Positions 3,416 through 46,951 of a stretch of 64,000 nt of DNA are shown one piece after another; positions within the stretch are counted from its first letter, which is position 1; the number at the start of each line of letters is the position of its first letter. The stretch comes from a virus: IMG/VR virus record IMGVR_UViG_3300000062_000003, positions 5,628-69,627 of that record. One strand, given 5' to 3'. Position numbers and translations under genes: made by a program. Below the pieces are notes generated by a model that saw nothing but the letters and a program-made list of their open reading frames with translations, was not told the origin of the DNA and made no database searches.

Positions 3416-3440
3416 CACCTTGATGTAACATTTTAAAATA

Positions 3441-3985: not shown

Positions 3986-4158
3986 ATCTTTTTTGGATAA
4001 TATTTTAGTAACTCTTTAATTTTAGCTAGCATTGGGGTTGTGGTAACAGGATGTTCAATAACTTCTTTATACCAACCACTGACAACTGATGTATCAACAG
4101 AACCCTCATAGGGGTCTAAACCTGCTAAATACTTACCACTAATTTTATTCTCCATCAC
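3970..4158 (-). CDS. Hypothetical protein
   Basis: 62-aa ORF with overlapping start/stop arrangement. Confidence 0.6.
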   Translation of the reverse strand: MMENKISGKYLAGLDPYEGSVDTSVVSGWYKEVIEHPVTTTPMLAKIKELLKYYPKKICWIY

Positions 4159-4952: not shown

Positions 4953-4953
4953 T

Positions 4954-5181
4954 TTATAATAGTTTTATGAATCCACCTAATGTTATTGCTAGTAAAATGC
5001 CAAATATTGTGGTCAGGGTTGCTGACTGAGTGAACTCATTTTTTAATCCTGGATTTTCTCCTACACCAAGTTGTTTCTCTCTTTCTATCTCTCTGTATGA
5101 TACATACATCACCAACATATTCGTTAGAAGACATAGCATTAAAATTGCAAGAGCTATTGTTGTTAGTATAAATGTTATCAT
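4954..5181 (-). CDS. Two-TM membrane protein
   Basis: 75 aa with two hydrophobic helices; 4-bp overlap with the upstream gene. Confidence 0.7.
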   Translation of the reverse strand: MITFILTTIALAILMLCLLTNMLVMYVSYREIEREKQLGVGENPGLKNEFTQSATLTTIFGILLAITLGGFIKLL

Positions 5182-5576
5182 TGCTTATCCCAAGTTGCTA
5201 CACTACCCTCAAAGAAATCACTTTTTTTATACCCTTTTATATATTTCCTAAGTGTCTCTGTAGATACTCCAACTTTACGTGTTCCTGGCAATACTTTATT
5301 GCTTGCTAAACTTGTTTTATATACTGAGATTGGTTTACGTGCTGTAACTGGAAATATTTCATTAGCAAATTGACGAGCAGTACTTACTGTTTTAAATTTA
5401 TGCTTTACTTCTCCTTTGTCAGTGGACGACCAATACACTGTTCTTCCATCTACTATACAACAAGTTTCTAATGTTTCTATTAAATCTCCTTCTGCAAACT
5501 CTTGTCCTTTTTCAAGACAAATAACATAGTGGTCAGAGGTCGAATTTCTATATGATGTTATTCTACTATATGACAT
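5178..5576 (-). CDS. Hypothetical protein
   Basis: 132-aa ORF in operon. Confidence 0.7.
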   Translation of the reverse strand: MSYSRITSYRNSTSDHYVICLEKGQEFAEGDLIETLETCCIVDGRTVYWSSTDKGEVKHKFKTVSTARQFANEIFPVTARKPISVYKTSLASNKVLPGTRKVGVSTETLRKYIKGYKKSDFFEGSVATWDKQ

Positions 5577-6193
5577 GGTTTTAAATCTTTTTCTTCTATT
5601 AATGTGTAAGTGAATGAATTTCCATATATTTTACTTGCTTTTTCTGCAAGTTTCATTACATAGTCAAAATCACTTACTTTCTGTGATACTTGACATCCTG
5701 CACTGTTGGCTCCTACCACCTGTGAATTAACTCCTGCCTTGTGGTAGTTGATTCCAAAGTATCCGTATTCAGTAGTTGCTTCGTCCAGGTCAAGTAAATT
5801 ATCTTTGTTTCCGTCTCTGTAAACAATACATCCGTTACCTCGCTGACATAAGGCTCTGTACTTGCCATTGTGAAGGTCTAACTTCCAAATACTTCTATAT
5901 TGTCCTGGCTTTAGAATTGCAACTCCTTTTTTAGCTGATGGATTGTTCATATAATGAAGTCCTGGTACAGTTGTCAGGGGATGGATATATCTCTTCCAGT
6001 CACCCTCATCATCTTTATACTCAACTACTAAAAAGTCGTCAAATGTGTTTTTGTTTTCGTTATTCTTTCGCCCTGCCCTGACCCCGATTATATTAAGATT
6101 ATAACTCCCTCTTTCAAAATAGGAGTATCCTTTACTCTTTAGTATATCTTCAAAATTAGCTTGGGCTACTTTACCTAATAATTTTTCATTCAT
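5558..6193 (-). CDS. YkuD/L,D-transpeptidase-fold peptidoglycan enzyme (putative endolysin)
   Basis: GINYH-x11-SAGCQV catalytic His/Cys signature; LNIIGVR, FDD and PGQY motifs. Confidence 0.75.
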   Translation of the reverse strand: MNEKLLGKVAQANFEDILKSKGYSYFERGSYNLNIIGVRAGRKNNENKNTFDDFLVVEYKDDEGDWKRYIHPLTTVPGLHYMNNPSAKKGVAILKPGQYRSIWKLDLHNGKYRALCQRGNGCIVYRDGNKDNLLDLDEATTEYGYFGINYHKAGVNSQVVGANSAGCQVSQKVSDFDYVMKLAEKASKIYGNSFTYTLIEEKDLKPCHIVE

Positions 6194-7801: not shown

Positions 7802-8107
7802 TTACAAAGTATCTGATTTATCTCTATAAACTAGTATATACTCTTCTTTTGTGCGTTTATAAATTATAGAATCTCTACCTTTTAAATCTTCCATTATTAA
7901 TTCTACATCCTTAACTTTACATCCACAATCACTTCTCCATTTGGGATGATTAACAATTACTGAGGTAGTAAGCCTAGTAGCTGTCATTCCATTAACTGGT
8001 TCACCAAATACTTTGATGCCACATGGATATGAATCAACTATTTCTACCTTTGATTCTAGTACTAACTTCTCAGCATTAAAAACTTCAACCTCTTTTTTCA
8101 TACTCAT
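7802..8107 (-). CDS. Hypothetical protein
   Basis: 101-aa ORF. Confidence 0.7.
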   Translation of the reverse strand: MSMKKEVEVFNAEKLVLESKVEIVDSYPCGIKVFGEPVNGMTATRLTTSVIVNHPKWRSDCGCKVKDVELIMEDLKGRDSIIYKRTKEEYILVYRDKSDTL

Positions 8108-8129
8108 GTTTGGGTTAATTTGTTATTAC

Positions 8130-8588
8130 TTAAATATTTAATTTGATGTACTCATACATCTTTGCTTTTAATTTTGTTATATATTGTTCGGTTCCTGCAC
8201 TGGCTGCATGCAACCTAATAGCTCTATCTATATCTTTTGTGGGATTATGATGTGCTTGTACTATATCAAACATCTCCCGTGACCTCTTGGGGTCAGTGCG
8301 GTCATCATACTCAAATTTCTTATACCCAACTAATCTGTTAGCCTCATCAACATAAATATATAATTGTTGAAATAAACCAAGTGCTGAACTGTTTGGATTC
8401 TTTGCAGTAGGGATACCTCTACTTTCCATCCATATTAATGCATTTATAAATGCTTCCCACCTTACTTCTTTACTTTCTACAACCTCTATTTTGTGTGTTA
8501 TTGTAGAAATCGGATGTGCTTTTTGCTCTGTTGATACTGCTGTAGAAGCAAGTAATAGTACAAGTAACATCCCTTTGATAATGTTCAT
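8130..8588 (-). CDS. Secreted lysozyme-like/lytic transglycosylase (SLT-type)
   Basis: Signal peptide, then LIWMESRG (catalytic E-S), NPNSSALGLFQ. Confidence 0.8.
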   Translation of the reverse strand: MNIIKGMLLVLLLASTAVSTEQKAHPISTITHKIEVVESKEVRWEAFINALIWMESRGIPTAKNPNSSALGLFQQLYIYVDEANRLVGYKKFEYDDRTDPKRSREMFDIVQAHHNPTKDIDRAIRLHAASAGTEQYITKLKAKMYEYIKLNI

Positions 8589-8649
8589 AATTTATAATTT
8601 AAAAATTCTCAGGGAGCAAAGTTACTGAAAATTACCAACATAGCAAAAA

Positions 8650-8925
8650 TTATATGTTAAAATAATAGTTAAAATCAGTTAAAATAATATTATATTGTTG
8701 TTTGGATAAGGCTTCAGGTATCGCACTAGTAATTTCTACAGGTACATTTTCCCTAAAATAAGAAAAGTCTTTATATTTTATAGCTAGGTAGAATTGTCGT
8801 TCAAAATCACAGTGGTCAAGGATGTGCTGACCAACTTCTTCAATCAATTCCCTATACAGCTGATGACTTACATATAATAAATCGTCCTGTTCTTTAGCTA
8901 CTACCTTTTGTCGAATACTATCCAT
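8650..8925 (-). CDS. Hypothetical protein
   Basis: 91-aa ORF. Confidence 0.65.
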   Translation of the reverse strand: MDSIRQKVVAKEQDDLLYVSHQLYRELIEEVGQHILDHCDFERQFYLAIKYKDFSYFRENVPVEITSAIPEALSKQQYNIILTDFNYYFNI

Positions 8926-8937
8926 TTAATTTGAATG

Positions 8938-8968
8938 AAAAAATGTGGCAGTATTCCACCACATTTTC
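8938..8968 (-). terminator. Intrinsic terminator after SSB
   Basis: AAAATGTGG/CCACATTTT inverted repeat plus T-run. Confidence 0.7.
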
Positions 8969-9002
8969 AAATTATGTAACTGTGTGTGTTTTCAATTAAT
9001 TA

Positions 9003-9827
9003 TCAAAAAGGCATCTCATCATCTATAGGAAGTTCTTTACCCTTTACTGTCTCCACATTCTTGGGAGCTACAGGTTTACTTTGCTTCTCATTAGATTTTG
9101 GTGAAGGTGCTGTAGAAGCCTTTAGTTCCTTCGCAATACGTTCTAATTGTTGTTCAAGTACAGTGTTCAAATATTCGTCTTGCTCTGAGAAATCCCATAC
9201 CTCTTTGCCAAATTTTTTAACGACTGCTGGTGATGGAATCACTCCATCTGGGTTCTTGTCTGATTTATATAGTATAGCTGACTTAACAAAATCTCTTTCT
9301 GTACCATTCATATAATTGAAGAATGCAGATATGGAATATGTTTTTTGACCATTATCTTTTACATACTCTTTCTTGCTGGTAGATACAGAATACTCAACAC
9401 TTAAATCAATATTTGGAAGTATTGTAATAATTCCTTTAACTATTTGATTTAGTCCAGTACCCTTTGTATTGTATACTGGTAGTGATATGCATTCTTGATT
9501 TCCTTCTGCTGCCTTTATAAAAATACGAAGCATTGGAACTTCTCCAGTATCAAATTTAGCATTACTAATATCAATGCCTGATATTTTACCATACTCAGTA
9601 CAGTTATATTGTTTGTGGTAGTATTTAGCTCCAGATTGAGAGCTTACTATTTCTGCTACTCCTATATCTGAGCCATCATAACCAGGATTCTCAGCCTGAC
9701 GTTGTAGGAAGATTGTTTTGTCAGTATCTCCTGCCTTATGGAACAATTTACCATTACTGTTTATCTTTAGATATAAAGTACTTGTACCTGCTCCATTTCC
9801 TCCATAATTGTTTGCTACTTCTGCCAT
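9003..9827 (-). CDS. ssb: Single-stranded DNA-binding protein (crAss-type)
   Basis: Flexible tail ending in acidic DDEMPF; next to recA; TAATTTTG promoter at 9879-9886. Confidence 0.75.
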   Translation of the reverse strand: MAEVANNYGGNGAGTSTLYLKINSNGKLFHKAGDTDKTIFLQRQAENPGYDGSDIGVAEIVSSQSGAKYYHKQYNCTEYGKISGIDISNAKFDTGEVPMLRIFIKAAEGNQECISLPVYNTKGTGLNQIVKGIITILPNIDLSVEYSVSTSKKEYVKDNGQKTYSISAFFNYMNGTERDFVKSAILYKSDKNPDGVIPSPAVVKKFGKEVWDFSEQDEYLNTVLEQQLERIAKELKASTAPSPKSNEKQSKPVAPKNVETVKGKELPIDDEMPF

Positions 9828-9929
9828 AATTGTTTAATTTTTTTGGTTGTTTAAAATATTATTGTTGTTTACTGAGTACAAAATTACTCATATAGTTTTA
9901 TATACTAAAATCTATTTTCTTAAAATATA

Positions 9930-10469
9930 TTAATTAGCATTATTAGGTTGTATGGCCTTCCTGAAAAACTTACCTAAAATATTGTCATTCACAAAGATAT
10001 CTTTATTTTGCGGCTCTAATACTCCTTCTGAAAATAAGAAAGCAGTTTCTAAAAATGTTAGTTGAGACTTTGTAGATGCTACTCCTAATACACAACGATG
10101 TACAACAGTCACTTTTCCTGATTGTAAGTCGGATATTAGTTGTTTATCTTTGAAACTACCGAAGTATAACTTCCAATCAGTCTCCCTGACCACCTTTTTC
10201 TTCTTACTACCACGTTTATCTTCCATAGCAGCCAATTCTTTCTTCCCTTTATCTACTTTATTTTCAGAAAGAATTTGTTTTCTACCTATATATCGTTTAC
10301 CATTAGAAAATTGTACCTCATATACAAATCCTATTATGTGGTCACGGTCAATGTCTATAATATGTTTTTCCGCATATGCCCTCTTGAAATCTTCTATTGT
10401 TTCTATATAAAAAGCAGTACCATACTTAGCGGTAGCTGACCATCTTGGTAGTCTTGAATTTATTCTCAT
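9930..10469 (-). CDS. GIY-YIG family nuclease
   Basis: GFVY-x8-YIGRKQ and ETDWKLYFGS motifs; 4-bp overlap with the recA stop. Confidence 0.75.
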   Translation of the reverse strand: MRINSRLPRWSATAKYGTAFYIETIEDFKRAYAEKHIIDIDRDHIIGFVYEVQFSNGKRYIGRKQILSENKVDKGKKELAAMEDKRGSKKKKVVRETDWKLYFGSFKDKQLISDLQSGKVTVVHRCVLGVASTKSQLTFLETAFLFSEGVLEPQNKDIFVNDNILGKFFRKAIQPNNAN

Positions 10470-11518
10470 ACAAAATTATCTATTTTCTCAATTAATTCTA
10501 AATTATCTTCTAGTAAATTTAACATAGCAATCTCTCCCTGTGCAAGGGAAACCTGTGTAAGTTCTCCATTTTCGTCCTTATCTAGGAACTTATACCAAGA
10601 ACCAGCTTTAATTATAGCTCCTTTAGTTAGTGCATCTGTAAGTACTTCTGACATAAATTTGAAACCATCCCCATAAAACATTTTCCATATAGTCTTACCT
10701 TTGGGCATTCCATTCTTATTCTTATATACAGTGACCTTTACATCATTTCCTATTTGCTCTTCTCCTGTTTTTATTGCAGTAGTACCAACCATGTCAATAC
10801 GGACAAATGCATAATACTCCTTAGCAGTTCCTCCAGGAGTAGTCGTTGGCGCACCATATCCACCAATATTCTCTCTGAATTGATTAATCATCACTACGGC
10901 TGTTTTAGTGCGATTTACGGCAGTCAATGCTTTTTTAATACCATTAGACATTCCGCTTGCTTTAAGTCCCATACGGTTAGATATCATGCTGTCATTTTGA
11001 AGGTCAGCCTCTACCATCATAGCATCTATAGAATCAATAACTATAAGGTCATAGTTTTGGAAATAAGTATTCTTTGTTTTGTCGGTCAGGGTGAATTTAT
11101 CTAAATCACAGCACGAAGCATATAAAGTAGAATAAATATCATCCATATCTAAAGTACGTGCAACATCTACTTTGCTCATATCAACACCTAATTTAATTGC
11201 ATATTGTACTTTAAAAGCATGCTCTGCGTCAATAAATAGCACTCTGAAGTCAGGGTTGATTTTTTGATTGTATGCAATTGTCTGTAATACTAATGTAGTT
11301 TTTCCACTAGATTGCATTCCATTTAATAATGTAAAATAACCTTTAGCAAATCCACCACCTATTTTATCATTTAACCAACGAGATGGTGTAGGGATAGCTT
11401 CTATTACATCATCCTTAGGAAGTTCATAGATATCAATATTAAGAGAGTTCTTAATTCTTGCTAGAGTACTTGCCTTAGATTCTCCTGGTTTAATTTCTGT
11501 AGTTTGTTTTCTTGCCAT
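10466..11518 (-). CDS. recA: RecA/UvsX-like recombinase
   Basis: Walker A GMQSSGKTT, FIDAEH, IVIDSI, INQFRENIG, TTPGG and KNK motifs; TAAATTTG promoter at 11540-11547. Confidence 0.95.
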   Translation of the reverse strand: MARKQTTEIKPGESKASTLARIKNSLNIDIYELPKDDVIEAIPTPSRWLNDKIGGGFAKGYFTLLNGMQSSGKTTLVLQTIAYNQKINPDFRVLFIDAEHAFKVQYAIKLGVDMSKVDVARTLDMDDIYSTLYASCCDLDKFTLTDKTKNTYFQNYDLIVIDSIDAMMVEADLQNDSMISNRMGLKASGMSNGIKKALTAVNRTKTAVVMINQFRENIGGYGAPTTTPGGTAKEYYAFVRIDMVGTTAIKTGEEQIGNDVKVTVYKNKNGMPKGKTIWKMFYGDGFKFMSEVLTDALTKGAIIKAGSWYKFLDKDENGELTQVSLAQGEIAMLNLLEDNLELIEKIDNFV

Positions 11519-31442: not shown

Positions 31443-33722
31443 ATGGCAGGAATTTTAAGAGGTGCAGTTTTACTAGATAGGTCAGTTGCTGGTATTAAGT
31501 TAATGGATGGTACAGTAGGTACAGTACAACTTATGAATGCATCAGTTACTATGGCGAAACTAGCACAAGATGTAATTGATTATATAGATAATATAGGCAC
31601 TATAACTGTAGAGGATACACTTACCTCTACATCAACTGTGAATGCATTATCAGCAAATCAGGGAAGGGCTTTAAAAGCATTAATAGACTCTATTGCAATA
31701 CCTAGTGTATTAGATAGTTTAACATCAACTTCAACTACAGCAGCTTTGTCAGCAAATCAAGGACGAGTACTTAAAGGACAAGTTGACGGAAAACAAGCAA
31801 CACTAGTCTCTGGTACAAATATCAAGACTATTAATAACACAACTATACTAGGCTCAGGAAATATTGCAGTACAACCCGTATTAGTATCAGGTACTAGTAT
31901 AAAGACAATTAATGGGGAGTCAGTGTTAGGCGCAGGAGATATAGTCATTTCAGGAGGCTCTACCACAACAGTCCTAGACACCCTGACCTCTTCTTCCGCC
32001 ACCGATGCTCTTTCTGCTAACCAAGGTAGGGTTTTAAAGGCTCTTATAGATGCAATAACTGTACCTAGTGTAATAGATAATCTTACTTCTACTTCCACAA
32101 CTAATGCATTATCGGCTAATCAAGGTCGTGCACTAAAAACATTAGTGGATGGTAAACAAGCAACTTTAGTTAGTGGCACTAATATTAAGACAATTGCTGG
32201 CAATACTATTTTAGGAACAGGTGACTTGTCATTAGTATCATTGGGGGCAGCTCCAGCAAGTCATAGCCATGCTAATTTGGCAGTACAGGTGCAGGGAGTA
32301 ACTAGAGGTAATTATGATACAAGTTCTGCACAAACCATCAACATCACCCGTGACCAACTAAATGTATTTTCTAAGTCAGAGGTAATAACTGAAATAGAGA
32401 CTAGGGTAGTTGAGAATCCAAATATGATGCTTGTACCAGTAGAGGCAATAACATCTGTAACACCTACAGGAATCACGTTTTCTATGGTAGGAAACAGAGA
32501 TGTTTATGCAGAGATGGATATTGTTAACAATAAAAAACTTGAAGAGGTTTCTGCAAGTAGAGCAATAGCATGTGGTACACAGTGTAGATTATTTATCCGC
32601 AACTCAGGAACATCTGAATGTATAGTGGATATCTCTGATGTACAACCACGAAATAAATCTTTTCAAGATGATATAACAATACCTGTAGGTGGATTTGCTG
32701 AAGTAATTATTATGGGATATGGTCTTAATAGGGTAACAACAACCCTGACCACTGAAATACCAGCACCCCCAGAAACAACAACATATCATATAAGTGTAGA
32801 CCCACAACAAGATAATATAACATATGAAGCACAACCAGTACAGTTTGATGTAACATCATATTCTCTAACAGGCGGAGTACGTACTCCTGTACTTCCAACA
32901 ATTACTAACTTACCAACTTGGGCAAGCATAACTAATATTGGAGCACCATCTGCACAAGGAGTGTACCCAGTAGAAATAGCGGTAACTGCTTCAACAGAGG
33001 AATATACTAGAGTAGCTAATCTTATTATAGATAATGGACATGTGACTGGTGCCTTCTCACTAAGTCAAGCAGGAGCACCTGTAACTACATATCACCTATC
33101 ATTCGACCCTTCAGCAGCTGCTGTAGGAGATTTTCTTACAACAGCAACTGTAGATGTCACTTCTTATTCAGAGTTAAATGGAGTACGTACACCACTAGAA
33201 CCTATTGTACAAACAGCAACACTACCAAGTTGGTTAGCATCAACAGGTCTTACATATGTGTCAGGTGAGACTTACCAATGGACATTTGAATCACAACAGA
33301 ATAATTTGACAGGTTCTATAAGAAATGCAAATGTAGGTATAGGACACCAGAGTATATATGGAGTACACACTACATATAATGTATTACAGCCACCAACATC
33401 AGGAGACCTCTTTGATAGACATATTACATTTAATTTCTATGTTACACATCCTGAACAGGCACCAGTTTATTTGTTTAAAAATGAACCTACCTTATCTCCT
33501 GACCAATATTTAACCACTATGATGGTACCCCCTGTAGGAACTCCTGTAGTTCTGTTTTGGAATAGTAGTGAAGGATTTAGAATAAATAGCGGAGGTAGTT
33601 CTACATTTACAGAGCTGGTACAACCAGACACTCTAATTTTGCCATACATACTAGAAAATAATTCATTTGTACAAATGCCTATATTTGTTTTGGAGAACAA
33701 TTCACAGATAGTACAGATATAA
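31443..33722 (+). CDS. Tail fibre/receptor-binding protein with LSANQGR repeats and BACON-like domains
   Basis: 4x D.LTS.S...ALSANQGR, 3x LVSGT.IKTI, two Ig-like BACON-type units near the C-terminus. Confidence 0.8.
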   Translation: MAGILRGAVLLDRSVAGIKLMDGTVGTVQLMNASVTMAKLAQDVIDYIDNIGTITVEDTLTSTSTVNALSANQGRALKALIDSIAIPSVLDSLTSTSTTAALSANQGRVLKGQVDGKQATLVSGTNIKTINNTTILGSGNIAVQPVLVSGTSIKTINGESVLGAGDIVISGGSTTTVLDTLTSSSATDALSANQGRVLKALIDAITVPSVIDNLTSTSTTNALSANQGRALKTLVDGKQATLVSGTNIKTIAGNTILGTGDLSLVSLGAAPASHSHANLAVQVQGVTRGNYDTSSAQTINITRDQLNVFSKSEVITEIETRVVENPNMMLVPVEAITSVTPTGITFSMVGNRDVYAEMDIVNNKKLEEVSASRAIACGTQCRLFIRNSGTSECIVDISDVQPRNKSFQDDITIPVGGFAEVIIMGYGLNRVTTTLTTEIPAPPETTTYHISVDPQQDNITYEAQPVQFDVTSYSLTGGVRTPVLPTITNLPTWASITNIGAPSAQGVYPVEIAVTASTEEYTRVANLIIDNGHVTGAFSLSQAGAPVTTYHLSFDPSAAAVGDFLTTATVDVTSYSELNGVRTPLEPIVQTATLPSWLASTGLTYVSGETYQWTFESQQNNLTGSIRNANVGIGHQSIYGVHTTYNVLQPPTSGDLFDRHITFNFYVTHPEQAPVYLFKNEPTLSPDQYLTTMMVPPVGTPVVLFWNSSEGFRINSGGSSTFTELVQPDTLILPYILENNSFVQMPIFVLENNSQIVQI

Positions 33723-33779: not shown

Positions 33780-33812
33780 TAATTGATAAATATCCCCCCC
33801 CCTAGTAATTAT

Positions 33813-34436
33813 ATGAAATATATTATAACACCACAAAGACATTATTTAAGAAAAATTATTAACTGCCAACGTGGTGGGCTTCTTACTTTGGCAGCTATAC
33901 TGAGTACTTTTATACTAACTGGATGTACTAGTATAGTGGGAATGTCTTCGGAAACATTTATAGGAGGAGTACCAACTAAAGATGTAATGATGCCTGTTGT
34001 AATAGAGATATTTGGGGTTATCTTTTATCTTTTATTCTTAGTAGTAGATTTTGGTACTGGAGTATGGGCTGCTAAAAAGGCATCCTCAAGACGAAAGTCG
34101 AAAGATAGCGTTATTAGAGCAGATAAGCTGTATAGGACTTTCTGGAAGTTACTAGGAGTACTTCTTCTAACAGGGCTTATAGGTACATTAGGAGTATTTG
34201 CATCAGTAATTTACCATCAATGGGCATATAAGACCTTAATGTGGGTACAAATAGTTATTTTAGTAGCAGCATGTCTGTATGAATTTCAGAGCATAGGAGA
34301 GAACATAAAAAAAGCTACAGGAACTAAGCCAGCTATTTTTGACTTTATAGGAGTTCTTTTTACTATTTTTAGAAGACGAGTTGTGGATAAAGTAGCAGGT
34401 GCAAGTTCTACTGAGGAAGAGAATAAGTTAGTTTAA
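33813..34436 (+). CDS. Holin (phage holin family 4-like)
   Basis: Multiple TMs; VDFGTGVWAAKK, FWKL and YEFQSIGEN motifs. ATG 33813 used; TTG 33783 is an alternative start. Confidence 0.8.
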   Translation: MKYIITPQRHYLRKIINCQRGGLLTLAAILSTFILTGCTSIVGMSSETFIGGVPTKDVMMPVVIEIFGVIFYLLFLVVDFGTGVWAAKKASSRRKSKDSVIRADKLYRTFWKLLGVLLLTGLIGTLGVFASVIYHQWAYKTLMWVQIVILVAACLYEFQSIGENIKKATGTKPAIFDFIGVLFTIFRRRVVDKVAGASSTEEENKLV

Positions 34437-36126: not shown

Positions 36127-36819
36127 TTGAATACTATGACAAATCGGGAATTAGTTAGTCAAATTTCTGGACAATTAAAAATGATAAACAAAGATGACCG
36201 AATTTCTCGTAGGCTCATCTTAGGAACAGCATTAAGATATTCTACAACTTTACATTCTCAGAAATTATTAGAAGGTACACTATTCAGAGAGGATAGTTTG
36301 TTTACTAAGTTGGAATGTGTGGAAATGGAGAAGGTAACTGCACAACGATGCGGATTAGCAGTACGGTGTAGTGTATTGATGAGAAGTAAAGAAAAACTAC
36401 CACATTCAGTCAGCAGTCGTTTTGGAAATTCAGTAATTATGGTTACCAACATCACTGACACTGTAGAGTTAAAAAAGGTAATATATGAAAATATAGTAGA
36501 TAAAACAACCCCCAGATATGCAGATTTAATTCCCAATACTCCATCATGGTTTGTATTTGATGATTATTTATATATTAAAGACTTCTCGATAGAGGCTGTA
36601 AATGTCCTTATTTTCTCCCTTCAACGGGATGACACTGCTAATAATGACAAAGGTAAGACAGGGGAATGCACCAATCACTGGGACTTAACATTTGTTTGCT
36701 CTGATAAGTTATTAGTTCCTATCATGCAATATACCATTCAGGAGTTAACTACCACGCGACAAATTGTGGAGGATGAACTTCCAGATGGAAATAGTAATGC
36801 TAAAGGAGGACAAGTTTAA
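36127..36819 (+). CDS. Tail ring/tubular protein (putative)
   Basis: MTNRELVS..., C..M..V...C...C and C.DKLL pattern of crAss-like ring proteins. Confidence 0.65.
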   Translation: MNTMTNRELVSQISGQLKMINKDDRISRRLILGTALRYSTTLHSQKLLEGTLFREDSLFTKLECVEMEKVTAQRCGLAVRCSVLMRSKEKLPHSVSSRFGNSVIMVTNITDTVELKKVIYENIVDKTTPRYADLIPNTPSWFVFDDYLYIKDFSIEAVNVLIFSLQRDDTANNDKGKTGECTNHWDLTFVCSDKLLVPIMQYTIQELTTTRQIVEDELPDGNSNAKGGQV

Positions 36820-37314: not shown

Positions 37315-38235
37315 ATGAATATTTTTGAAGACAAAATAGGTATAGACCAACTTATCAGCGAGGTACAAACTATGCTTCGTAAGTATAAGGACTCAGGATT
37401 TGTGACTGAGGCCAACATTATAGCTTTTACAATGGATAAACTAAAAGTGTTTGGAAATAATGTCATGGTAGACTATGAAGATGTAGTACCTATTGCTGAT
37501 TTTAGAGGCATGTTACCAAGTAATCTGTATAGAGTAAATGCAATGTATAAATGTCATTCTTGCGAGCCTATACAATCTCCATGTGACCCTTGTTCCAGTT
37601 GTGAGAGCGAAGAAGACAACTTATGTAAGCCAAGACCATACCCAGTAGCACAAAAGATGTTTAAATGGGCTGAAACTACCAGATATAGAGAGACAGAAAA
37701 TTCATGTGAGAATTGTGATTCTGAAATAGAGACTACAGTTGGCTGTGAAATGACCTATGTACCAGAAGTGGCACGGTTTCGGCTTAGAGGTAGGACACCC
37801 CTGACCTTTGGGAAAGGAATGCTTTCAGGAATGTGTACAGATGAATGTAGAAATTGTCAAGATAGGTCTTCTAAGTATCAAGTGGAAATAATGAGCGAAA
37901 GGATGCTTAAGACATCTTTTCCAAGTGGCTCTATTTATGTTCAATACTATGGGATTCCTTTGGATGAGAATAACAGACCAATGATTCAGAACTCAAATAA
38001 AGGATTTGTTTATGAGCACATAAAGTACTATGTGTTGATGAAGATTTTAGAGTACATTATTATTGAAAACGAACAAGCAATACCAGTATATCAATTGATG
38101 AGTCAGAAAGCTATGGAAACAGCAAGACCAGCATCAGTAGATGCGAAAGTTAGCACCTTCTCTAACACATCATATGTTCGTATGCGTGCTCAGAATAGAC
38201 GTAATACAGAACAGTATTTTCGTACTCGACCTTAA
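37315..38235 (+). CDS. Tail ring/tubular protein (putative)
   Basis: 306 aa, Cys-rich insert, SGSIYVQYYG..LDE motif; precedes the muzzle gene. Confidence 0.65.
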   Translation: MNIFEDKIGIDQLISEVQTMLRKYKDSGFVTEANIIAFTMDKLKVFGNNVMVDYEDVVPIADFRGMLPSNLYRVNAMYKCHSCEPIQSPCDPCSSCESEEDNLCKPRPYPVAQKMFKWAETTRYRETENSCENCDSEIETTVGCEMTYVPEVARFRLRGRTPLTFGKGMLSGMCTDECRNCQDRSSKYQVEIMSERMLKTSFPSGSIYVQYYGIPLDENNRPMIQNSNKGFVYEHIKYYVLMKILEYIIIENEQAIPVYQLMSQKAMETARPASVDAKVSTFSNTSYVRMRAQNRRNTEQYFRTRP

Positions 38236-38266: not shown

Positions 38267-41200
38267 GTGGTTAGACAAGATAAATATAATGTCCCGCAAG
38301 CAGGGATGGATACTGATACACATCCAATGGAACTTAAGGATGCATCATATACTTTCGCTAAAAATGCAATCCTAAATAGTGAAGGAGGAGATGGTATGGT
38401 AAAGCTACAAAATGAACCATCCAATTTATTAAATAGTGTTCTTCCTGTAGGATTTGTAGTAATAGGTAATATTTATGATGCACTTACTAACAGGGTGTAC
38501 TTATTCTTGGCTAATGACACTACGAAAGTTTCTGAAATAGGATTTATAACATTAGGAAGTGAGCTAGACCTTAAAGATAATGATTGGAGCTACGCCTGTG
38601 ACCACAAAGAGATTATTACAGAGAAGTTAGAGGAAATAGCACAATTACCATCTAATGTGTACACTACCTTACTTTCAGATGATTGTAATGGTACATTGAA
38701 TTTCTCTATTACACATCCATTTCGCGAAGGTACTATTGATTTAAAAAATGAGAAGTGTGGAAAAGTATTATATTTTACAGATAATCTGAATCCAACAAGG
38801 AGGTTAGAGTTAGATAATATTGATTGGTACAAGCAAAGTGATGAGGAGTCAGAAGGAGTTCGAACCAACTTAGATTACAATATCATTTCCCCAATCCCTG
38901 ACTGGGTACATCAAGTAAAAACAGCTACAGGATATTCATATACAGTGGATAATAACACTGAAGTAGCAGGACGTAATACTACTCTATTACTACAGCAAGA
39001 CGAAAGTGGAAGACAAGTTGCAATAACCATTAGACAAGATGGTATATTTATTCCTCCTACACCAGTAGATTGGAAATATACATTTGAATTAGTACCTGAA
39101 ACAATAGCTGCGTCAGGCTTAGGTGGAGTGTTTCCAGTATCTTTAGACAGTTTTAGAGATAATCAATTGACTCCATTTCAACATGAAGAACTTTCAGTAA
39201 GTTTAGAAGGACTCCCAAATTGGATTCAGTATGATTCTGAAACTAAGGAGTTTGTTATAAGTGAAAATTTAGGAACCATACCCAGGGAGACCAGCCTTTT
39301 ACTAAGACAGGCTGAAAGTAATAGTATACTTAGACTTACTATTATACAGGAGGTGGCTCCTCCAGCACCAGACCCTGACCCCGAATGGCGATATATACTT
39401 AATGTAGCACCAGTATCTCAACAATGCTCCAGTGCATCACATATAATTCCTTATAGTATTCTAAGCTATAAACAAGATATACATCACCCTGACATATTAA
39501 ATAACATTGATTACACTATAACCAGTGATTCTCCTTGGTTAGTAGTAGATACTTTCTTTGGACAATTAAATATAGCAGCTAATACTACAAGTGCAGTTAG
39601 GGAAGGAATAGTTACAGTAACTCAGAACGAGTCAGGATATACTGAAACAATAACTATAAAGCAAGGAGTAACGATAAATATTTATCCTGACCCGCCAGCA
39701 CCTCAGTTACCCATAGATTTTTTATTTACAGAAAGTAGTTTAACTAATACAGAGTTTTTCTTTATTGGTACTGATATTTCTGCCAGAAATACAGATGTAA
39801 GTAGTTACCGATATCTATTCAGTAATCCAGATAACCATATTCCCATAGATTTCAGGTTGAGAGCATTGGATAGTTGGGTTACTATAGAAAACACTTCTGA
39901 TAATACTTATTCAATTACTCCAAGTACAAATTCAGGAGATGACAGGGAGACATATGTTGTGTTTGAACAACGTATTAATGGAGTAGTGATTGAAGTTGGG
40001 AGGTATAAAGTGTTCCAACAAGGTATCCCTTTTACCTATACTTTCAGGCTATTACCTACTGTAATGGTATTTAGTAATACTGAAGGACAACAAACAATAA
40101 ATCCTCGAACAAGCAATAAAAGCAATTCTTCCACACCAATACCAGTAGGTTATGCAATTGAGTCAGGATACCCATCTTGGGTAACTCCTGCATTAGATAG
40201 GATTTCTGTAGAAAATAATCTAGGAGGATATCGTACTACAAGTGTTACTTATACACAAGAAGAATCAGGAAAACAGATTGTAATTGAAGTTAGACAGCAG
40301 GCACAGCCAGTTGTAACATTTTCGAGTGCATATTCTTCTGAAATAGAAATATCTGCAATATCAGATGCACAAGTTTCAGAATCACCATCTGACTTATTAA
40401 GAGATTCTATATTGCAAGCAAATTCTTCGCTCACTACATCTTTTATTTTATTTGCCAATCCTTCAAATTTATCTTTTACAGCAGATGATACAAGTAGTAA
40501 GCATATATTTGTGACAAGTTATAGGGAGGACTTTGACCCCTCATCCACGCCCCTGACCTGTGTAAATGTTGAAAGACTAAGACTAAGACCTAGATACAGT
40601 AAACCATGTATAACTCCTATTGCTATCTCTAATGGAGGTAATCTAAAAATGGGAGTATATGAGTATGTTGTAGCAGCATGTGACAAACAAGGCAATGAGT
40701 TCACTCCATTTTATGCAGCTACTACACCAGTATCTATATTTAATAAGGCAGATGTTATTATGGGGCAGCCAGAAATGGCTGGTAATTCAAATATGGGAGT
40801 CCTATTACAAGTGGAATGGGATGACCCCAGGGTAAAATATTATAAAATAGTAGTTGCTCAAACAGCCAGTTTAGATAGTACTACAACATATTATGAAGAG
40901 GGTATTTATCCAATATACACTAGAACTATAACTCATACTGATGATTTCAGTAAACAACCTACTACATTACAGCATCTTTATCAGATGCCGATGGTGTATG
41001 AGAAAACCAGAATGTTAACTTCTTCAAATGGGTATTTATTTGAAGGTGGAATAACTGTTAAGAAAGCCTTAAATTTGCAGCCAGCAGCTCTTCTGATAGG
41101 AGCATTAGCATTGTGGCAAACAGTAGAAACACTAGAAGGACTATACTCAAATGGAACATCTTCTGCACTATATAAATCAGCATTACGAGATGAAGTGTAT

Positions 41201-44200
41201 CCATATGGAATCAGATTCACAGGTAAAAGTGGATATGTGTCAGATACTTTTGTAATGGCTTCCAGACCTTCAAGACCTTTTGATGTAGAAGTATTACTTA
41301 GTACAAATATGAATGTAGAGTCTATTCGTAATGGAGCACAAGCTTGTACAATGGAGACTAGGTTGTTTAGATATCAGTTTGAAAATACTGCAACATTATT
41401 AGATTATAAAATTGAAGATGAATCATTAGTAGATGTAGGAGGCGGGGCAATAAATTTAAGTACAAATTGTAATGTAAAACCATATGAGACAGGTGAATTT
41501 GCATATTGGGAATCTGAGACAACCTACCCTGACAACGATGAGTTGTTTAATGCACAAAATCTACATATAGAGGAGTCTGATTTACCAGATATACCATATG
41601 TAAAAGATACTTTTGAAGAATTTTTTGTAGAAAGTAAAACTGGAGGACAATACACACTAAATTCTAATGCAGACTTTAGAAATAAAGGTATAAGACATTT
41701 TAAATATCCAGATTTCAATGTCTCTCCATTTATGGATTGTACAGAAGAAGCAACCTCTGACCCAAAAGCTCAGTTTACAGATAGTAATATATATCCTATT
41801 GGATTTTATATACATGAAGATGTGGTTAAATTTGCTTTAGATATATCTTTAAAAAATGGCTTATTGACACAAGAGGAGTACAATGATATAGATGGGTTTG
41901 AAATACTTCGAGGAGATAGAACAATTCACAAAAGTATTATAGCAAAAGGACTTGGCTATGACATGTACAGCTATAATGATACTACTAGCCAACCTGAACA
42001 AGAAATATGGTATCCTAATTTTCCTTACAATGATTTAACTTCCAATAAGTTACAATATATAAGAAGAGGTAGTGATAGAGATTCTGGTACTATAATACCA
42101 CACCCATATGAGGGTAAAAAAAATAATAAATTTGCTTTCCATTCCCCTGACATCTCTTTCCACAAACCACAACTACCCCAAGAACTAGTACTAGAAGGAT
42201 ATCAATATGGATGGTCTAAGGGAGTGTTCAATCAAGTAAGAGACCATTCTAGGTGGGTGATACTGACTAGCAATGCTTTTAATATAGCAAGAACACTAGC
42301 AATGGCTGAGGTGTTATTAGATGTACTAGGTAAGTATGGTGATAACATAATGGCACAAGCAACAATAAAGGATAGGGATATAACAGGTACAGTGGATTAT
42401 ACGAGTGGGCTAGGCCTAACCTCTACTAAGGTAGTTACAGTAACTTCTGTACCACCAGCTGTTGCTACTGATACTACAACAAGTGCACCATTTAAGGTAG
42501 ATTATGACTTGACACTATCTACAGACACAGGATGGCAAGAAAAGATAGTGATGGGACTATCTGCTGCTACTATATTGGGAAGTATAGGAGCATCCTATGC
42601 AGAAGCATATACAAGATGGTTAGAAATATTTAAAAAGTTTGGAGAACCAATAAATTTTGCATACTATTACACTTCAGTAGGACACTACAATAAAGGAGTC
42701 AAAAACTTAGATAATAATAACAATACTACAGAGAGTAACTTACGAACATTAATGGCTGCACATTATATATCCAATGCAGGCATGGTTAGTGTGAGTGAGC
42801 AGACAGGAATAAATACAAGAGAACAAGTTAAACTAAATGCTAGAGATAGAGAATCTTTCGTATATTTAAGTACAGGAGAACACTATCCATTAGATGTAAA
42901 TAGTAATGTAAGAAAAGAATTTGATGAGAGTAGAGTAATTGCAGGCGATGATGGATATACTGGTAATAATGACAGAGAAGTTTTTGCAGATATAGCATCT
43001 CCTTACTTCTCATTAAAACAGTATTTACCAAACCAATATGCATCAGTAAATTCTATTAAATGGTTACCCACAGGCCATTGTGGTATTTTTGGAAGGAAAA
43101 AACACCACCAAATATTTGGAGGAGATACTTTCATAACTAGATATGCACTAAAGAGAAAGGTTCCATTTTGGTATTCTACAGCACATGGCTTACGGGACAG
43201 GGAGCAATTTAATTATACACAGTATGACAATATAGGACAAAATGTTTATTATGCTAATTATGATACTTCAGATATAGAAGAGTTGGATATTCAAGGGATA
43301 CCAGCTGCAATTGCAGCATTAATTGGCATCAATGCTCCAACGCCCAAATGGAGAACAGATGCGAAGTTTGATACACTGCATGAAAGTGGAAATTATGTAA
43401 GAGAGTCTAGTAAACTATACTTATACTACTATGGTATCCCATCATTCTTATGTGAGTCAAGTGTAAATTGTGATTATAGATTTGCGAAAGCCAGACCAGA
43501 AGAAATGTTTTACCCACAAGTAGAAGATTATGTAGAATGGACACAGGAGAGTACAGTTAGTATTAGAGAAGATAATAAATTCTTTTATAATAATGTTTAC
43601 TCTAAAAATGCCATGTTAGCAAATGGCGGGGTACTACCAGAAACATATGAAAAAGAAGAGTATGATTGTAGGTTTGATATGCCAAATGGAGTAATCTACT
43701 CTATGCAAGATACTGGTGAGCAGGATATGACAGACCCTTGGTCAGTGTTCAGACCTTTAGATTTCTATCAATTTCCATCAAGTTTTGGAAGACTAGTACG
43801 ACTTAAAGGGATAGAGTCGAGTCAGGTATTAGGATTATTTGAAAATCAAGTGGTATTATATAATGCTATAGATGTTTTACGTGAAAGAACTGAATCTACT
43901 ACTAGAGAACTTGGAACAGGTGGAATATTTGCTAAGAGACCAGTAGAGTTCTTCAAAAGTGATTTAGGCTATGGAGGTTCACAGCACAGTGCTTTACTAT
44001 CTACTCCATATGGACATTTCTATATAGATTGTCAAAGAGGATTTTTTATGTTAATCCAACCAAATGGGAAAGGTATGCAGCCAATTTCTAAAGGTAAAAG
44101 TCGTTGGTTTAAGAAACATCTTCCATTTAAGATTCTAAAGGGAGGCATTAAGGGATTAACCTCTTTAGATGTAGATAATAATTACAATCATCTAGGAGTG

Positions 44201-45079
44201 ACTTTAGGGTGGGATAACAAGTATGATAGGATTATTTTCACAAAAGTTGATTATATTGTAAATAAGGAATGGAGAAATAAATTAATGTACGAAGAGGGTC
44301 GCCTCTACAAATTAACCGAAGAAGGATTTAGAGGAGAAGAAGTAGTTATCACTGATTCGAATATATTTAAGAATGCTTCGTTTACAATGTCCTACTCACC
44401 AGTTCAAGGGTATTGGTCATCGTATCACTCCTATACTCCTAATTATATTATTAGTAATTCTGAAACTTTTGCAACAGGATATAATATTGGTAATAAAAAT
44501 GGAATAGTTGATTCTAGTATATGGGAACATAACAGAACGGAACAATCTTTCTGCGTATTTCAGAATAAGTTATATTCATTTGAGATTGAGTATCCAGTTA
44601 CAAATACTGCTGCTAACAACTCATTGAGTAATGTAGCATACTGGCTGGATTGTAGGAGGTATAAAGATGCCACTAATTACGCAGCCCTGACCAGGATAGG
44701 ATTTGACGAAACCTTCATATACAATGAAACTGAAAACACAGGAGTAATGAATCTTGTTGTCGAAGAGAAAAATAATAGAAGGCAGTATATAGAATATCCA
44801 AAATATGTAGGAAACAATTTGCACATTTTAGTAGCTAACAGAGATAAAGAATGGAATCTTAACTCTATATATAATAGAATAAGAAGAGAAAATGTAAATG
44901 TCCCACAATTATTGTCTGATGTAAATGAGATTGATTTTGAGCCTAATTCTTCTGTTATTGACCGTAGTACAAGAAAACAAGATTTTCTTCGTGGAAACTG
45001 GTTTAAAATGCGCCTGAGAGCTAAGAAATCATCCTATAAGTTAATTTCAAATTGGTTTAGAAGTTCTATACAATCTTGA
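38267..45079 (+). CDS. Tail stabilisation (muzzle) protein with an inserted BACON array
   Basis: 2270 aa; G.DTD.HP...Y..AKNA N-terminus, RDEVYPYGIRF, GGDTFI.R and FGRL motifs; BACON-like repeats at 38849-40528. Confidence 0.85.
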   Translation: MVRQDKYNVPQAGMDTDTHPMELKDASYTFAKNAILNSEGGDGMVKLQNEPSNLLNSVLPVGFVVIGNIYDALTNRVYLFLANDTTKVSEIGFITLGSELDLKDNDWSYACDHKEIITEKLEEIAQLPSNVYTTLLSDDCNGTLNFSITHPFREGTIDLKNEKCGKVLYFTDNLNPTRRLELDNIDWYKQSDEESEGVRTNLDYNIISPIPDWVHQVKTATGYSYTVDNNTEVAGRNTTLLLQQDESGRQVAITIRQDGIFIPPTPVDWKYTFELVPETIAASGLGGVFPVSLDSFRDNQLTPFQHEELSVSLEGLPNWIQYDSETKEFVISENLGTIPRETSLLLRQAESNSILRLTIIQEVAPPAPDPDPEWRYILNVAPVSQQCSSASHIIPYSILSYKQDIHHPDILNNIDYTITSDSPWLVVDTFFGQLNIAANTTSAVREGIVTVTQNESGYTETITIKQGVTINIYPDPPAPQLPIDFLFTESSLTNTEFFFIGTDISARNTDVSSYRYLFSNPDNHIPIDFRLRALDSWVTIENTSDNTYSITPSTNSGDDRETYVVFEQRINGVVIEVGRYKVFQQGIPFTYTFRLLPTVMVFSNTEGQQTINPRTSNKSNSSTPIPVGYAIESGYPSWVTPALDRISVENNLGGYRTTSVTYTQEESGKQIVIEVRQQAQPVVTFSSAYSSEIEISAISDAQVSESPSDLLRDSILQANSSLTTSFILFANPSNLSFTADDTSSKHIFVTSYREDFDPSSTPLTCVNVERLRLRPRYSKPCITPIAISNGGNLKMGVYEYVVAACDKQGNEFTPFYAATTPVSIFNKADVIMGQPEMAGNSNMGVLLQVEWDDPRVKYYKIVVAQTASLDSTTTYYEEGIYPIYTRTITHTDDFSKQPTTLQHLYQMPMVYEKTRMLTSSNGYLFEGGITVKKALNLQPAALLIGALALWQTVETLEGLYSNGTSSALYKSALRDEVYPYGIRFTGKSGYVSDTFVMASRPSRPFDVEVLLSTNMNVESIRNGAQACTMETRLFRYQFENTATLLDYKIEDESLVDVGGGAINLSTNCNVKPYETGEFAYWESETTYPDNDELFNAQNLHIEESDLPDIPYVKDTFEEFFVESKTGGQYTLNSNADFRNKGIRHFKYPDFNVSPFMDCTEEATSDPKAQFTDSNIYPIGFYIHEDVVKFALDISLKNGLLTQEEYNDIDGFEILRGDRTIHKSIIAKGLGYDMYSYNDTTSQPEQEIWYPNFPYNDLTSNKLQYIRRGSDRDSGTIIPHPYEGKKNNKFAFHSPDISFHKPQLPQELVLEGYQYGWSKGVFNQVRDHSRWVILTSNAFNIARTLAMAEVLLDVLGKYGDNIMAQATIKDRDITGTVDYTSGLGLTSTKVVTVTSVPPAVATDTTTSAPFKVDYDLTLSTDTGWQEKIVMGLSAATILGSIGASYAEAYTRWLEIFKKFGEPINFAYYYTSVGHYNKGVKNLDNNNNTTESNLRTLMAAHYISNAGMVSVSEQTGINTREQVKLNARDRESFVYLSTGEHYPLDVNSNVRKEFDESRVIAGDDGYTGNNDREVFADIASPYFSLKQYLPNQYASVNSIKWLPTGHCGIFGRKKHHQIFGGDTFITRYALKRKVPFWYSTAHGLRDREQFNYTQYDNIGQNVYYANYDTSDIEELDIQGIPAAIAALIGINAPTPKWRTDAKFDTLHESGNYVRESSKLYLYYYGIPSFLCESSVNCDYRFAKARPEEMFYPQVEDYVEWTQESTVSIREDNKFFYNNVYSKNAMLANGGVLPETYEKEEYDCRFDMPNGVIYSMQDTGEQDMTDPWSVFRPLDFYQFPSSFGRLVRLKGIESSQVLGLFENQVVLYNAIDVLRERTESTTRELGTGGIFAKRPVEFFKSDLGYGGSQHSALLSTPYGHFYIDCQRGFFMLIQPNGKGMQPISKGKSRWFKKHLPFKILKGGIKGLTSLDVDNNYNHLGVTLGWDNKYDRIIFTKVDYIVNKEWRNKLMYEEGRLYKLTEEGFRGEEVVITDSNIFKNASFTMSYSPVQGYWSSYHSYTPNYIISNSETFATGYNIGNKNGIVDSSIWEHNRTEQSFCVFQNKLYSFEIEYPVTNTAANNSLSNVAYWLDCRRYKDATNYAALTRIGFDETFIYNETENTGVMNLVVEEKNNRRQYIEYPKYVGNNLHILVANRDKEWNLNSIYNRIRRENVNVPQLLSDVNEIDFEPNSSVIDRSTRKQDFLRGNWFKMRLRAKKSSYKLISNWFRSSIQS
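38849..40528 (+). repeat. In-frame 560-aa array of BACON-like Ig domains
   Basis: Repeated P.W...N....R......Q.ES......I.Q units: one C-terminal half, four complete units, a linker and one N-terminal half. Confidence 0.8.
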
Positions 45080-45097
45080 CCATAAATAAAATACTAT

Positions 45098-46951
45098 ATG
45101 CCTACACGAGATTTAAGAAATAATCAAGTTGAACCTTTAGCTAGTGAGAGTACCAGCACCTCAACCCCTGACCCCTCACTACAAATAGTCAAAAGAAAAC
45201 AAAGAAATACTAAAGAAACACCTAATACTACTAATAGTACCAATACAACACATACTATTGTTTCAGGGGATATCCTTAGTCGTATTGCTAAAGATAATGG
45301 AGTAACCTTAGAAGGACTTTTAGCTGTAAATCCAGGTATAAGTAATCCTAACAATGTACCAATAGGACAGGTAGTGAACATACCTAGACCAGATGGAATA
45401 TCATCTACTATTACTCAAGAGTTAGTACAAGCAGAGCAGGAGTATCGACAAAAAAGACAAAAAGCGCGCCCAAAAGATAATGTAAGTTCTGTATACTCTG
45501 TAATAAAAGGAGATAATTTAAGTAAGATAGCAAGAGCACATAATGTATCAGTTCAAACTATATTACAGAACAACCCTGACATTAGAGATGCTAATCAAAT
45601 AGAAATAGGGCAGGAAATAAAAATTCCTACTAATCCTTCTAACCAGCGTACTATACCTATGAACTTTTCTACTATTCAGAAAAGGGAAGAAGAAATAAAT
45701 CAGATGTCAGATGTTGATATTATCAATCATTATCATAAGACCCAGAAAACGGGTAAAGCATACATGATAGATGATAAAGCAAATGGGAGAACATCAGTCT
45801 ATAGAAATGGACAGTTAATTAAATCATATGTAAGTGTACATGGAAAAGCTGCTGACCTGGACGATATGACCATTACTTATGTAGATAAGAAAACAAAAGA
45901 GATTATAGATGGAGCAGGTAATATGTCCACTCCAGCAGGTGTCTATAAACTTGTTCCTAGTGGTAGGTATTATGGAGCACCTGCTTTTATGAGGCAGTTA
46001 CCCATACAGTTTGCTAAGAAAATGGAAGATGGTATTCCTTCTTCTGTACATGTGCGAAATGTAAGAGATGGGTCTAAGTTTAAGACTAATGGATGTACAG
46101 GGATGGCAGCCTGTGACCTAAGGGATATGGCTAAGTATATAAAAGAACCTACTGAATCATACATTTTACCTGTAGAGGAAGGTAATAGATTTTATTTACG
46201 CAATGGAGAGCTACAATTTAGAACTAATAACGTAGCAGAAACTCCAGCACATAATACTATGAACTATGCACCAGCTACTAGTATACTGAGCAACAAACAT
46301 CGTAATTTAACAGAACATCAACAAGAAGTTGCTGCTGCCTTCGTAAAATCTTTAGCTGATAATAAGGTAGCCATACAACAAGCAACAGGGCTTAATAATG
46401 ATAGTTATATTCAATTAGCTAAAGTAGCTTATGGAATGCTAGGAGCAGAGTCTACTTTTGGTAAGGAAAACTCTGCACTAGAAAATGTAGGTAAATTTTT
46501 AGGAAAGGCTACTGGACTGCATTCTACAAGTCCTGATATATATTCTAAGCATGATACCTATGAGCCAGTATTAAGGTTTTTAGGCCAATCTACAAATAAT
46601 AGGTCAGTTGGACTTACTCAAATAAGAATGACCCAATTATCAAAGGAAGATAAGAAGTTATTAAAGCAATTTAGGATACATAGACATTCACTAGTCAATT
46701 CTCCTGAAAAGGCTGCAATAGCCACAATGATAAAACTAGCAACTGCATATAAAAATCATGGACATAATATAGAAAGAGCACTCAGTAAAGAGTGGAATAG
46801 TGGGGTACATTATCAGGATATTGTTAATGACTATAGCAGAGACTTGGAGTTTAATCAAGACTATCCAGTAACTGAGGAAGAGTACAACAAGTACTGGGGG
46901 GGGGGTCGCCAGTTACACCAACATTCAAGGAAGGAGGTACTACTATGGTAA
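45098..46951 (+). CDS. Virion peptidoglycan enzyme: 2x LysM + YkuD/LDT-like + lysozyme-like domain
   Basis: HTIVSGDILSRIA and YSVIKGDNLSKIA (LysM); STPAGVY...SVH...TNGC (YkuD); GMLGAES...GLTQ (lysozyme-like). Confidence 0.85.
   Translation: MPTRDLRNNQVEPLASESTSTSTPDPSLQIVKRKQRNTKETPNTTNSTNTTHTIVSGDILSRIAKDNGVTLEGLLAVNPGISNPNNVPIGQVVNIPRPDGISSTITQELVQAEQEYRQKRQKARPKDNVSSVYSVIKGDNLSKIARAHNVSVQTILQNNPDIRDANQIEIGQEIKIPTNPSNQRTIPMNFSTIQKREEEINQMSDVDIINHYHKTQKTGKAYMIDDKANGRTSVYRNGQLIKSYVSVHGKAADLDDMTITYVDKKTKEIIDGAGNMSTPAGVYKLVPSGRYYGAPAFMRQLPIQFAKKMEDGIPSSVHVRNVRDGSKFKTNGCTGMAACDLRDMAKYIKEPTESYILPVEEGNRFYLRNGELQFRTNNVAETPAHNTMNYAPATSILSNKHRNLTEHQQEVAAAFVKSLADNKVAIQQATGLNNDSYIQLAKVAYGMLGAESTFGKENSALENVGKFLGKATGLHSTSPDIYSKHDTYEPVLRFLGQSTNNRSVGLTQIRMTQLSKEDKKLLKQFRIHRHSLVNSPEKAAIATMIKLATAYKNHGHNIERALSKEWNSGVHYQDIVNDYSRDLEFNQDYPVTEEEYNKYWGGGRQLHQHSRKEVLLW
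46896..46905 (+). repeat. G10 homopolymer at the junction of two hydrolase genes
   Basis: Ten consecutive G in a roughly one-third GC genome. Confidence 0.9.

Follow-up and report, generated by a model that had tools for sequence, protein, structure and literature searches.

Arrays of β-sandwich domains have distant ends and are therefore usually seen in fibres or at the termini of proteins rather than inside loops. How such an array might be accommodated within a short loop of a core tail protein is the question raised by the gene for a crAss-type muzzle protein in the DNA analysed here, a window of 64,000 nucleotides (positions 5,628 to 69,627 of the IMG/VR virus record IMGVR_UViG_3300000062_000003) from a viral genome that is a single contig of 110,764 bp. 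Within this gene an in-frame insert of 560 codons (1680 bp, nucleotides 38849-40528 of the window, residues 195-754 of the protein) encodes an array of BACON-like units. The array starts and ends in the middle of a module, U0, which is circularly permuted at the sequence level. We consider it probable, mainly from structure prediction and conservation, that the two terminal pieces fold into one module and that the permuted U0 anchors the array in the loop.

Borders and modules of the insert

The left junction reads AGT GAT GAG GAG/TCA GAA and the right one AGT TAT AGG GAG/GAC TTT (slashes mark the borders); the coordinates, frame and junction DNA of the insert are those given in a first-pass annotation of the window, made from the sequence alone. 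In 15 homologues without insert, three of them from cultured or annotated phages, the insertion site is occupied by a variable loop of about 20 residues, typically Y.YTGEE.CGDD...TC, located between the conserved blocks YFTDNLNP.RY..LD and TC..CEKLR. The flanks of the window protein, WYKQSDEE and DFDPSSTPLTC, add up to 19 residues when the insert is taken out. Since the joined flanks match the loop length of the homologues, the insert is a clean addition to a short loop with no host residue lost, and the alignment of homologues with and without it leaves the borders where the annotation had set them. The loop aligns to about residues 150-168 of gp44, the muzzle protein of phage PhicrAss001, whose propeller carries the IG1 domain (residues 163-292) as an insertion that separates blades 2 and 3 (PMC10172136); hence, by this alignment, the insertion site is the junction of blade 2 and IG1 in the gp44 map. 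The insert and the remainder of the muzzle gene have equal GC content, and the GC skew falls to about 0 across the insert (38800-40600), compared with 0.1-0.2 elsewhere in the gene.

A second muzzle protein, P0004 (2232 residues), carries the same insert. It is encoded on an independent contig of 66,967 bp, L007, and is 56% identical to the window protein over the N-terminal 1000 residues searched. The insert has the same borders and again measures 560 residues, with ...YYQESDE/GGTGTITNL at the left junction and VYVTSYQE/EFDPDT at the right one. Because the insert and its boundaries recur on an independent contig, the misassembly that the annotation had considered is ruled out. Among 1.84 billion protein representatives only P0004 shares the insert, the next matches being ordinary BACON arrays at about 30% identity, and no further insert-bearing relatives were found in viral_contigs or metagenome_contigs. 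The muzzle homologues other than P0004, all without insert, are at most 42% identical.

The BACON family PF13004 is recognized in the whole protein with an E-value of 6.2e-12 and 45.8 bits, against a cut-off of 25, in three stretches, the best of them at residues 417-466, inside unit U2; PF19190 reaches only 12.7 bits, under its cut-off. Comparison by BLASTP of the insert with itself and with the tail fibre encoded in the same genome gave nothing significant, the units being 16-32% identical. As the units are too diverged for such self-matches, a hidden Markov model (HMM) of the unit was used. It comprises 97 positions and was built from ten whole units (four from the muzzle protein of the window, four from P0004 and two from the tail fibre), cut at proline-rich linkers and without the two end pieces. 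The model finds four whole units, U1 to U4, between two pieces of a further unit, U0, the positions 28-96 coming first and 2-33 last (Table 1). The annotation had described these ends as the halves of a BACON-like domain; they are indeed BACON pieces, although of unequal size, about one third (30 residues) and two thirds (66 residues) of a unit.

When the end of the insert is joined to its start, the two pieces give a single hit over HMM positions 2-96 with 48.2 bits. Control joins with random 54-residue segments of the host protein scored 38.2 +/- 1.5 bits and none of 1000 attained 48.2; with a shuffled N-piece the joins scored 39.6 +/- 2.0 bits, and 0 of 500 attained the real score. The corresponding join in P0004 reaches 43.2 bits, compared with 32.8 +/- 1.0 for random joins. 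Moreover, BLASTP alignments of the joined unit to regular in-phase BACON units in unrelated array proteins such as P0026, P0021 and P0025 run colinearly through the junction; with residues 359-452 of P0026 the identity is 34% (E 6e-11, residues 2-95 of a query of 98). The order of the pieces, the score of the join and the alignments across it confirm the circularly permuted array that the annotation had put forward, and the register it had noted between VTSYRE-SEGVRTNL at the join and VTSYSE-LNGVRTPL in the tail fibre is correct by sequence comparison. The phase of the units was also considered: were the true borders at SYR/E, nothing would be permuted. This shifted phase is rejected by the proline-rich linkers and the dips in the predicted local distance difference test (pLDDT) at the chosen borders (residues 260-267, 366-371 and 679-706), and by the ordinary arrays, which share the chosen phase.

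The synonymous sites are saturated between the window gene and the gene of P0004 (proportion of synonymous differences, pS, 0.64-0.96). Since P0004 shares the insert and its boundaries at 56% identity and with such saturation, comparison of the two genes indicates that the permuted arrangement is old and selected. It would go back to one event, in the common ancestor of the two phages.

Table 1. Insert parts and further features in the window, with match to the unit HMM or to Pfam and amino-acid identity to P0004 (fraction)
Feature	Nucleotides (residues)	Strand	Match	Identity to P0004
U0 C-piece, last ~2/3 of a BACON-like unit, after host ...WYKQSDEE	38849..39046 (195-260)	+	HMM 28-96 (hit residues 188-260), 33.6 bits	0.41
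U1, whole BACON-like unit	39071..39361 (269-365)	+	HMM 1-97, 100 bits	0.41-0.57 (U1-U4)
U2, whole BACON-like unit	39386..39673 (374-469)	+	HMM 1-96, 104 bits	
U3, whole BACON-like unit	39713..40030 (483-588)	+	HMM 1-97, 83.6 bits	
U4, whole BACON-like unit	40031..40309 (589-681)	+	HMM 1-97, 82.1 bits	
Tether, 43 residues, Ser- and acid-rich, not BACON-like	40310..40438 (682-724)	+	no HMM match	0.23 (length 43 vs 46 residues)
U0 N-piece, first ~1/3 of a BACON-like unit, before host DFDPSSTPLTC	40439..40528 (725-754)	+	HMM 2-33 (hit residues 725-757)	0.60 (highest within insert)
Muzzle protein gene, host of the insert	38267..45079	+	open reading frame, 2270 residues	0.67-0.75 (host parts)
Two whole in-phase BACON-like units in tail fibre gene 31443-33722	32778..33398	+	HMM 70.7 and 71.9 bits	
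CrAss_Ring_2 gene	36127..36819	+	Pfam PF25702, E 7e-19	
CrAss_Ring_1 gene	37315..38235	+	Pfam PF24228, E 1.7e-13	

Predicted pairing of the two end pieces

Whether the pieces of U0 meet in a single fold was addressed by predicting a complex of two chains, residues 189-268 and 712-760, supplied with alignments of the matching pieces of whole units. The three runs gave interface scores (ipSAE) of 0.62, 0.64 and 0.01 (median 0.62), whereas the highest score among three controls was 0.01; the mark applied is attained by 58 of 80 solved complexes and by 2 of 110 mismatched pairs. At least 1% of the contacts agreed between runs, and the pLDDT of the partner chain was 73, 73 and 33. The contacts of lowest predicted error join the last strand of the C-piece, residues 254-258, with residues 735-739, and residues 222-226 with 745-749, which we take to be the pairings A'-G and B-E that are usual in Ig-like sandwiches. 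Since the alignments of the chains held matching pieces of whole units, this pass partly reflects likeness to the BACON fold.

The AlphaFold models show about ten strands per unit; the pLDDT is 70-86 in U1 and U2 and poor in U3. The C-piece of U0 has six predicted strands (pLDDT 64-80) and is conserved in P0004. The model of residues 1-1000 (mean pLDDT 62, predicted template modelling score 0.35) gives the N-piece strands at 724-731 and 746-755, at a pLDDT of 46-69, and the region of the tether, residues 679-706, lies below 50. A Foldseek search with the same model returned only generic multi-Ig arrays such as cadherins and was uninformative on the host fold.

Both pieces abut the host protein with no linker and within one short loop, so the ends of the C-piece and of the N-piece must lie close to each other. 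Together with the conservation of the N-piece and the score of 0.62, this favours what the annotation had offered as its alternative, a split domain that closes a looped-out chain, closure itself being predicted. Several results weigh against such a closed module: (i) one of the three complex runs failed, with a score of 0.01; (ii) AlphaFold on the insert alone (an alignment of two sequences, mean pLDDT 52) leaves residues 679-760 strandless at a pLDDT of 22-31, although this run is uninformative about closure; (iii) closure is predicted from two separate chains and not within a full-chain model; (iv) the N-piece by itself scores a weak 0.5 bits against the unit HMM, and (v) the insert is known from two sequences only, too few for covariation. 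As to whether the two parts fold as one domain, then, two of three complex runs pair them, whereas the model of the insert alone leaves the N-piece disordered.

The same disorder, the failed run and the weak match of the isolated N-piece are what would be expected if the end pieces were leftovers of truncated units with no joint domain, either disordered or packed on the host or on the neighbouring unit. We regard this as unlikely. Leftovers would give no reason for break points that agree to the residue, nor for an N-piece that is conserved above any unit of the insert and far above the adjacent tether (0.60 vs 0.23). The N-terminal pattern of the unit has been kept in both phages, as the 1000 random joins and 500 shuffles, none of which attained the real score, bear out, and the complex score of 0.62 stands against 0.01 for the best control. 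Taking these points with those listed above, folding of the two end pieces into one module, with the array anchored in the loop by the permuted U0, is the reading we favour as probable.

Origin of the insert

The insert would have arisen in a single old event, the out-of-phase copying of about five unit lengths of a tandem BACON array, as we infer by analogy with known permuted domains. The annotation had pictured a more particular route, the integration of an excised adhesin circle at a microhomology in the manner of Campbell. Spelled out, recombination between the repeats of a tandem array would have released five BACON units as a circle, which then entered the muzzle gene at the short homology. 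Such a route concerns the origin only and is compatible with a split domain. It would account for the exact register, the pieces of 30 and 66 residues plus an inter-unit linker making one array unit, and for the absence of any loss of host residues. The junction 12-mers, AGTGATGAGGAG and AGTTATAGGGAG, match at 9 of 12 positions, for which P is about 0.002 if the two sites are taken as fixed. Nevertheless, when the boundaries are free to move by +/-4 codons about 0.11 of random site pairs attain 9/12, and in L007 the junction 12-mers match at 6 of 12 positions only (counted from the printed sequence), with GGAG absent at the right junction. No core shared by both junctions beyond chance, as integration of a circle would call for, was found. 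Because the event predates a divergence in which synonymous sites have become saturated, the present junction DNA keeps no footprint of it and is silent on how it took place. The tether, 43 residues that are not BACON-like, is unexpected for a plain circle of units. The 33-mers expected for the empty site and for the circle junction, which the annotation had suggested looking for, are both absent from viral_contigs, a weak result as exact matches were required.

The register does not single out a circle. It is explained equally well, by analogy, by copying a tandem array out of phase, which is how swaposin has been proposed to arise, and equally by two crossovers or template switches at the S-Y-R-E/D motif in two units of a linear array; selection for complementing pieces would enforce it as well. 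The register thus suits a linear DNA intermediate as well as a circular one, and nothing in the data requires a circle. The integration by microhomology is therefore neither supported nor refuted: the register stands, the 9/12 match is weak once the boundaries are free, and we consider a circle quite improbable as the source.

The two units of the tail fibre are the only BACON-like units outside the muzzle gene in the 110.8-kb genome. As donors of the insert they are unsupported, being no closer to U0 than to other units (23-32% identity). Besides its two BACON-like units, the tail fibre (31443-33722, 759 residues) has four Phage_fiber_rpt repeats and a further domain at its C-terminus. In the L007 locus BACON units occur in the muzzle gene only; its positions 2644-6099 have instead a fibre-repeat protein of 277 residues followed by three other open reading frames, none with BACON units. 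From this comparison of the two loci, the fibre module is seen to have been exchanged between the two phages while the muzzle insert was kept.

Proposed architecture, known parallels and the host gene

We propose that the insert is a five-module BACON-like array that the muzzle protein displays on a surface loop. In the model, the chain would leave the host and first make the last six strands of U0 (residues 195-260), run outward through the four whole modules U1 to U4 (residues 269-681), return by the flexible 43-residue tether (residues 682-724) and make the first strands of U0 (residues 725-754) before re-entering the host. Entry to and exit from U0 would occur at a single turn, ...VTSYRE/SEGVRT..., and U1-U4 with the tether would form a closed arch linking the natural C- and N-termini of U0, at opposite poles of the sandwich. 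Such a geometry would bring the ends of the insert side by side, an arrangement that is required by a host loop with about 19 residues and that an ordinary head-to-tail β-sandwich array cannot provide. Since the muzzle is a hexamer, located in PhicrAss001 at the tail tip (PMC10172136), six arrays would be displayed there, near the propeller/IG1 region. They would probably serve in adhesion or as additional contacts to the cell surface, by analogy with the BACON arrays of gut phages, which are tail-associated (PMC6949934), and given their own position at the tail tip. With the permuted module, the phage would be able to attach an adhesin of several modules straight to the conserved machinery of the tail tip.

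An idea that we hold with very little confidence is that permuting one module is a general phage route to nest Ig-like/BACON arrays in core tail proteins, the arch serving as a mechanical sensor (surface binding would pull on the split module and help to open the muzzle gate) or, alternatively, the pieces complementing each other between subunits and chaining the hexamer. As an explanation of the two pieces, completion in trans, the N-piece of one subunit completing the C-piece of its neighbour along the six subunits, is in keeping with a hexameric muzzle and with a two-chain prediction that cannot separate cis from trans, but is most improbable, since both pieces abut the host without a linker, residues 194 and 755 would lie in one loop of about 19 residues of a single subunit, and a SYRE/SEG turn formed across subunits would need residue 755 within a few ångströms of residue 194 of the neighbour.

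Formation of one domain from two distant stretches, with others looped out, occurs in nested and split β-sandwich adhesins such as the pneumococcal pilus adhesin RrgA and in split PH domains. In those cases the order is N-part ... C-part and a guest is inserted into the split domain. In the protein of the window, by contrast, the C-part comes before the N-part, and it is the split domain that has been inserted as the guest.

The nearest known parallel in principle is swaposin, a permuted member of a tandem-repeat family placed in a host loop. Swaposin, the plant-specific insert of plant aspartic proteases, is a circular permutation of saposin attributed to an out-of-phase excerpt from a tandem repeat (PMC3320104). 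In both cases a domain of swapped order occupies a host-protein loop, its family is known from tandem repeats too, and the ends of the insert are, or would be, close to each other. In swaposin, however, the halves and a short linker make up the whole insert, whereas here four units and the 43-residue tether lie between the pieces; further, swaposin is a helical bundle and U0 a predicted β-sandwich.

The BACON arrays of tail proteins in crAss-like and other gut phages (PMC6949934) belong to the same family, PF13004, and likewise consist of old, strongly diverged units. They differ from the present array in being in phase and in occurring in fibre-type proteins, whereas here the array is nested in the muzzle protein and out of phase. 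The string 'permut' is absent from the text of the paper that describes them (de Jonge et al. 2019, PMC6949934), and a literature search on permuted BACON domains found no such paper; in the single paper in which both terms occur, 'circularly permuted' stands once and presumably describes genomes. The ordinary array proteins nearest to the insert match the BACON Pfam family with E-values of 1e-20 to 1e-33, and at least one of them adjoins a tail-fibre-type gene. The gene of the nearest, P0018 (L008, ENA k119_137792, 8001-10958), is next to a Peptidase_S74 tail-fibre-type gene on a phage-like contig of 100.5 kb and translates only when TAG is read as Q, which suggests a stop-codon-recoded phage as its source.

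The host protein is homologous to PhicrAss001 gp44 (PDB 7QOK; PMC10172136) and, as there, its gene follows the ring genes. The structure of gp44 is a seven-bladed propeller with IG domains and a crass fold, and is nested in its own right: blades 2 and 3 have IG1 between them, blade 3 holds IG2, and loops of IG2 in turn hold the crass fold (PMC10172136). BACON units are absent from gp44, and in the window protein the insert falls at the junction of blade 2 and IG1. As length variation has been reported in the crass and IG2 regions (PMC10172136), this junction would be a further variable site. If a structure confirms the closed U0, the junction would become the third variable site of the crassvirus muzzle, the swaposin principle would be extended from one domain to a whole array, and a design rule would be at hand for grafting repeat arrays into loops. 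The finding shows no new mechanism of DNA mobility.

The annotation had named the gene as that of the muzzle protein, and correctly so. The open reading frame matches PHROG 37948, 'virion structural protein', with an E-value of 2.7e-296. Its closest named relatives, 30-37% identical over the N-terminal part, are structural proteins of the Cellulophaga phages phi17:2 and phi4:1, a protein of csAssE-Sib and a Leptolyngbya phage protein. A single-sequence phmmer search of the PDB with the whole protein gave no match; a profile was needed, and one built from 14 homologues matches gp44 (7QOK_A) with an E-value of 4e-8. Two ring protein genes, which flank a small open reading frame, lie just upstream of the muzzle gene, and the same order of ring genes followed by the muzzle gene is found in contig L007 of the related phage. 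The profile match to gp44, the ring genes upstream and the homologue of csAssE-Sib, an epsilon crAss-like phage, which is annotated as 'Muzzle protein', establish that the gene is that of the crAss-type muzzle protein.

The muzzle homologues of phi17:2 and csAssE-Sib (L001 and L002) have no BACON insert, yet their total length, 2257-2289 residues, is the same, owing to a large extra region at about residues 450-900, farther downstream, that is absent from the protein of the window. In csAssE-Sib (OR575929.1, 359-6786) two annotated TnpB-type transposase genes separate the muzzle gene from the ring protein gene, and their presence there suggests that the ring-muzzle junction tolerates insertions of mobile DNA. 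Around the muzzle gene of the window, the open reading frame 33783-34436, in the tail and ring block between the tail fibre and the ring genes, matches a phage holin family (PF05105, E 1e-5), and the gene right after the muzzle gene (45098-46951) encodes two LysM domains and has a weak YkuD (L,D-transpeptidase-like) match.

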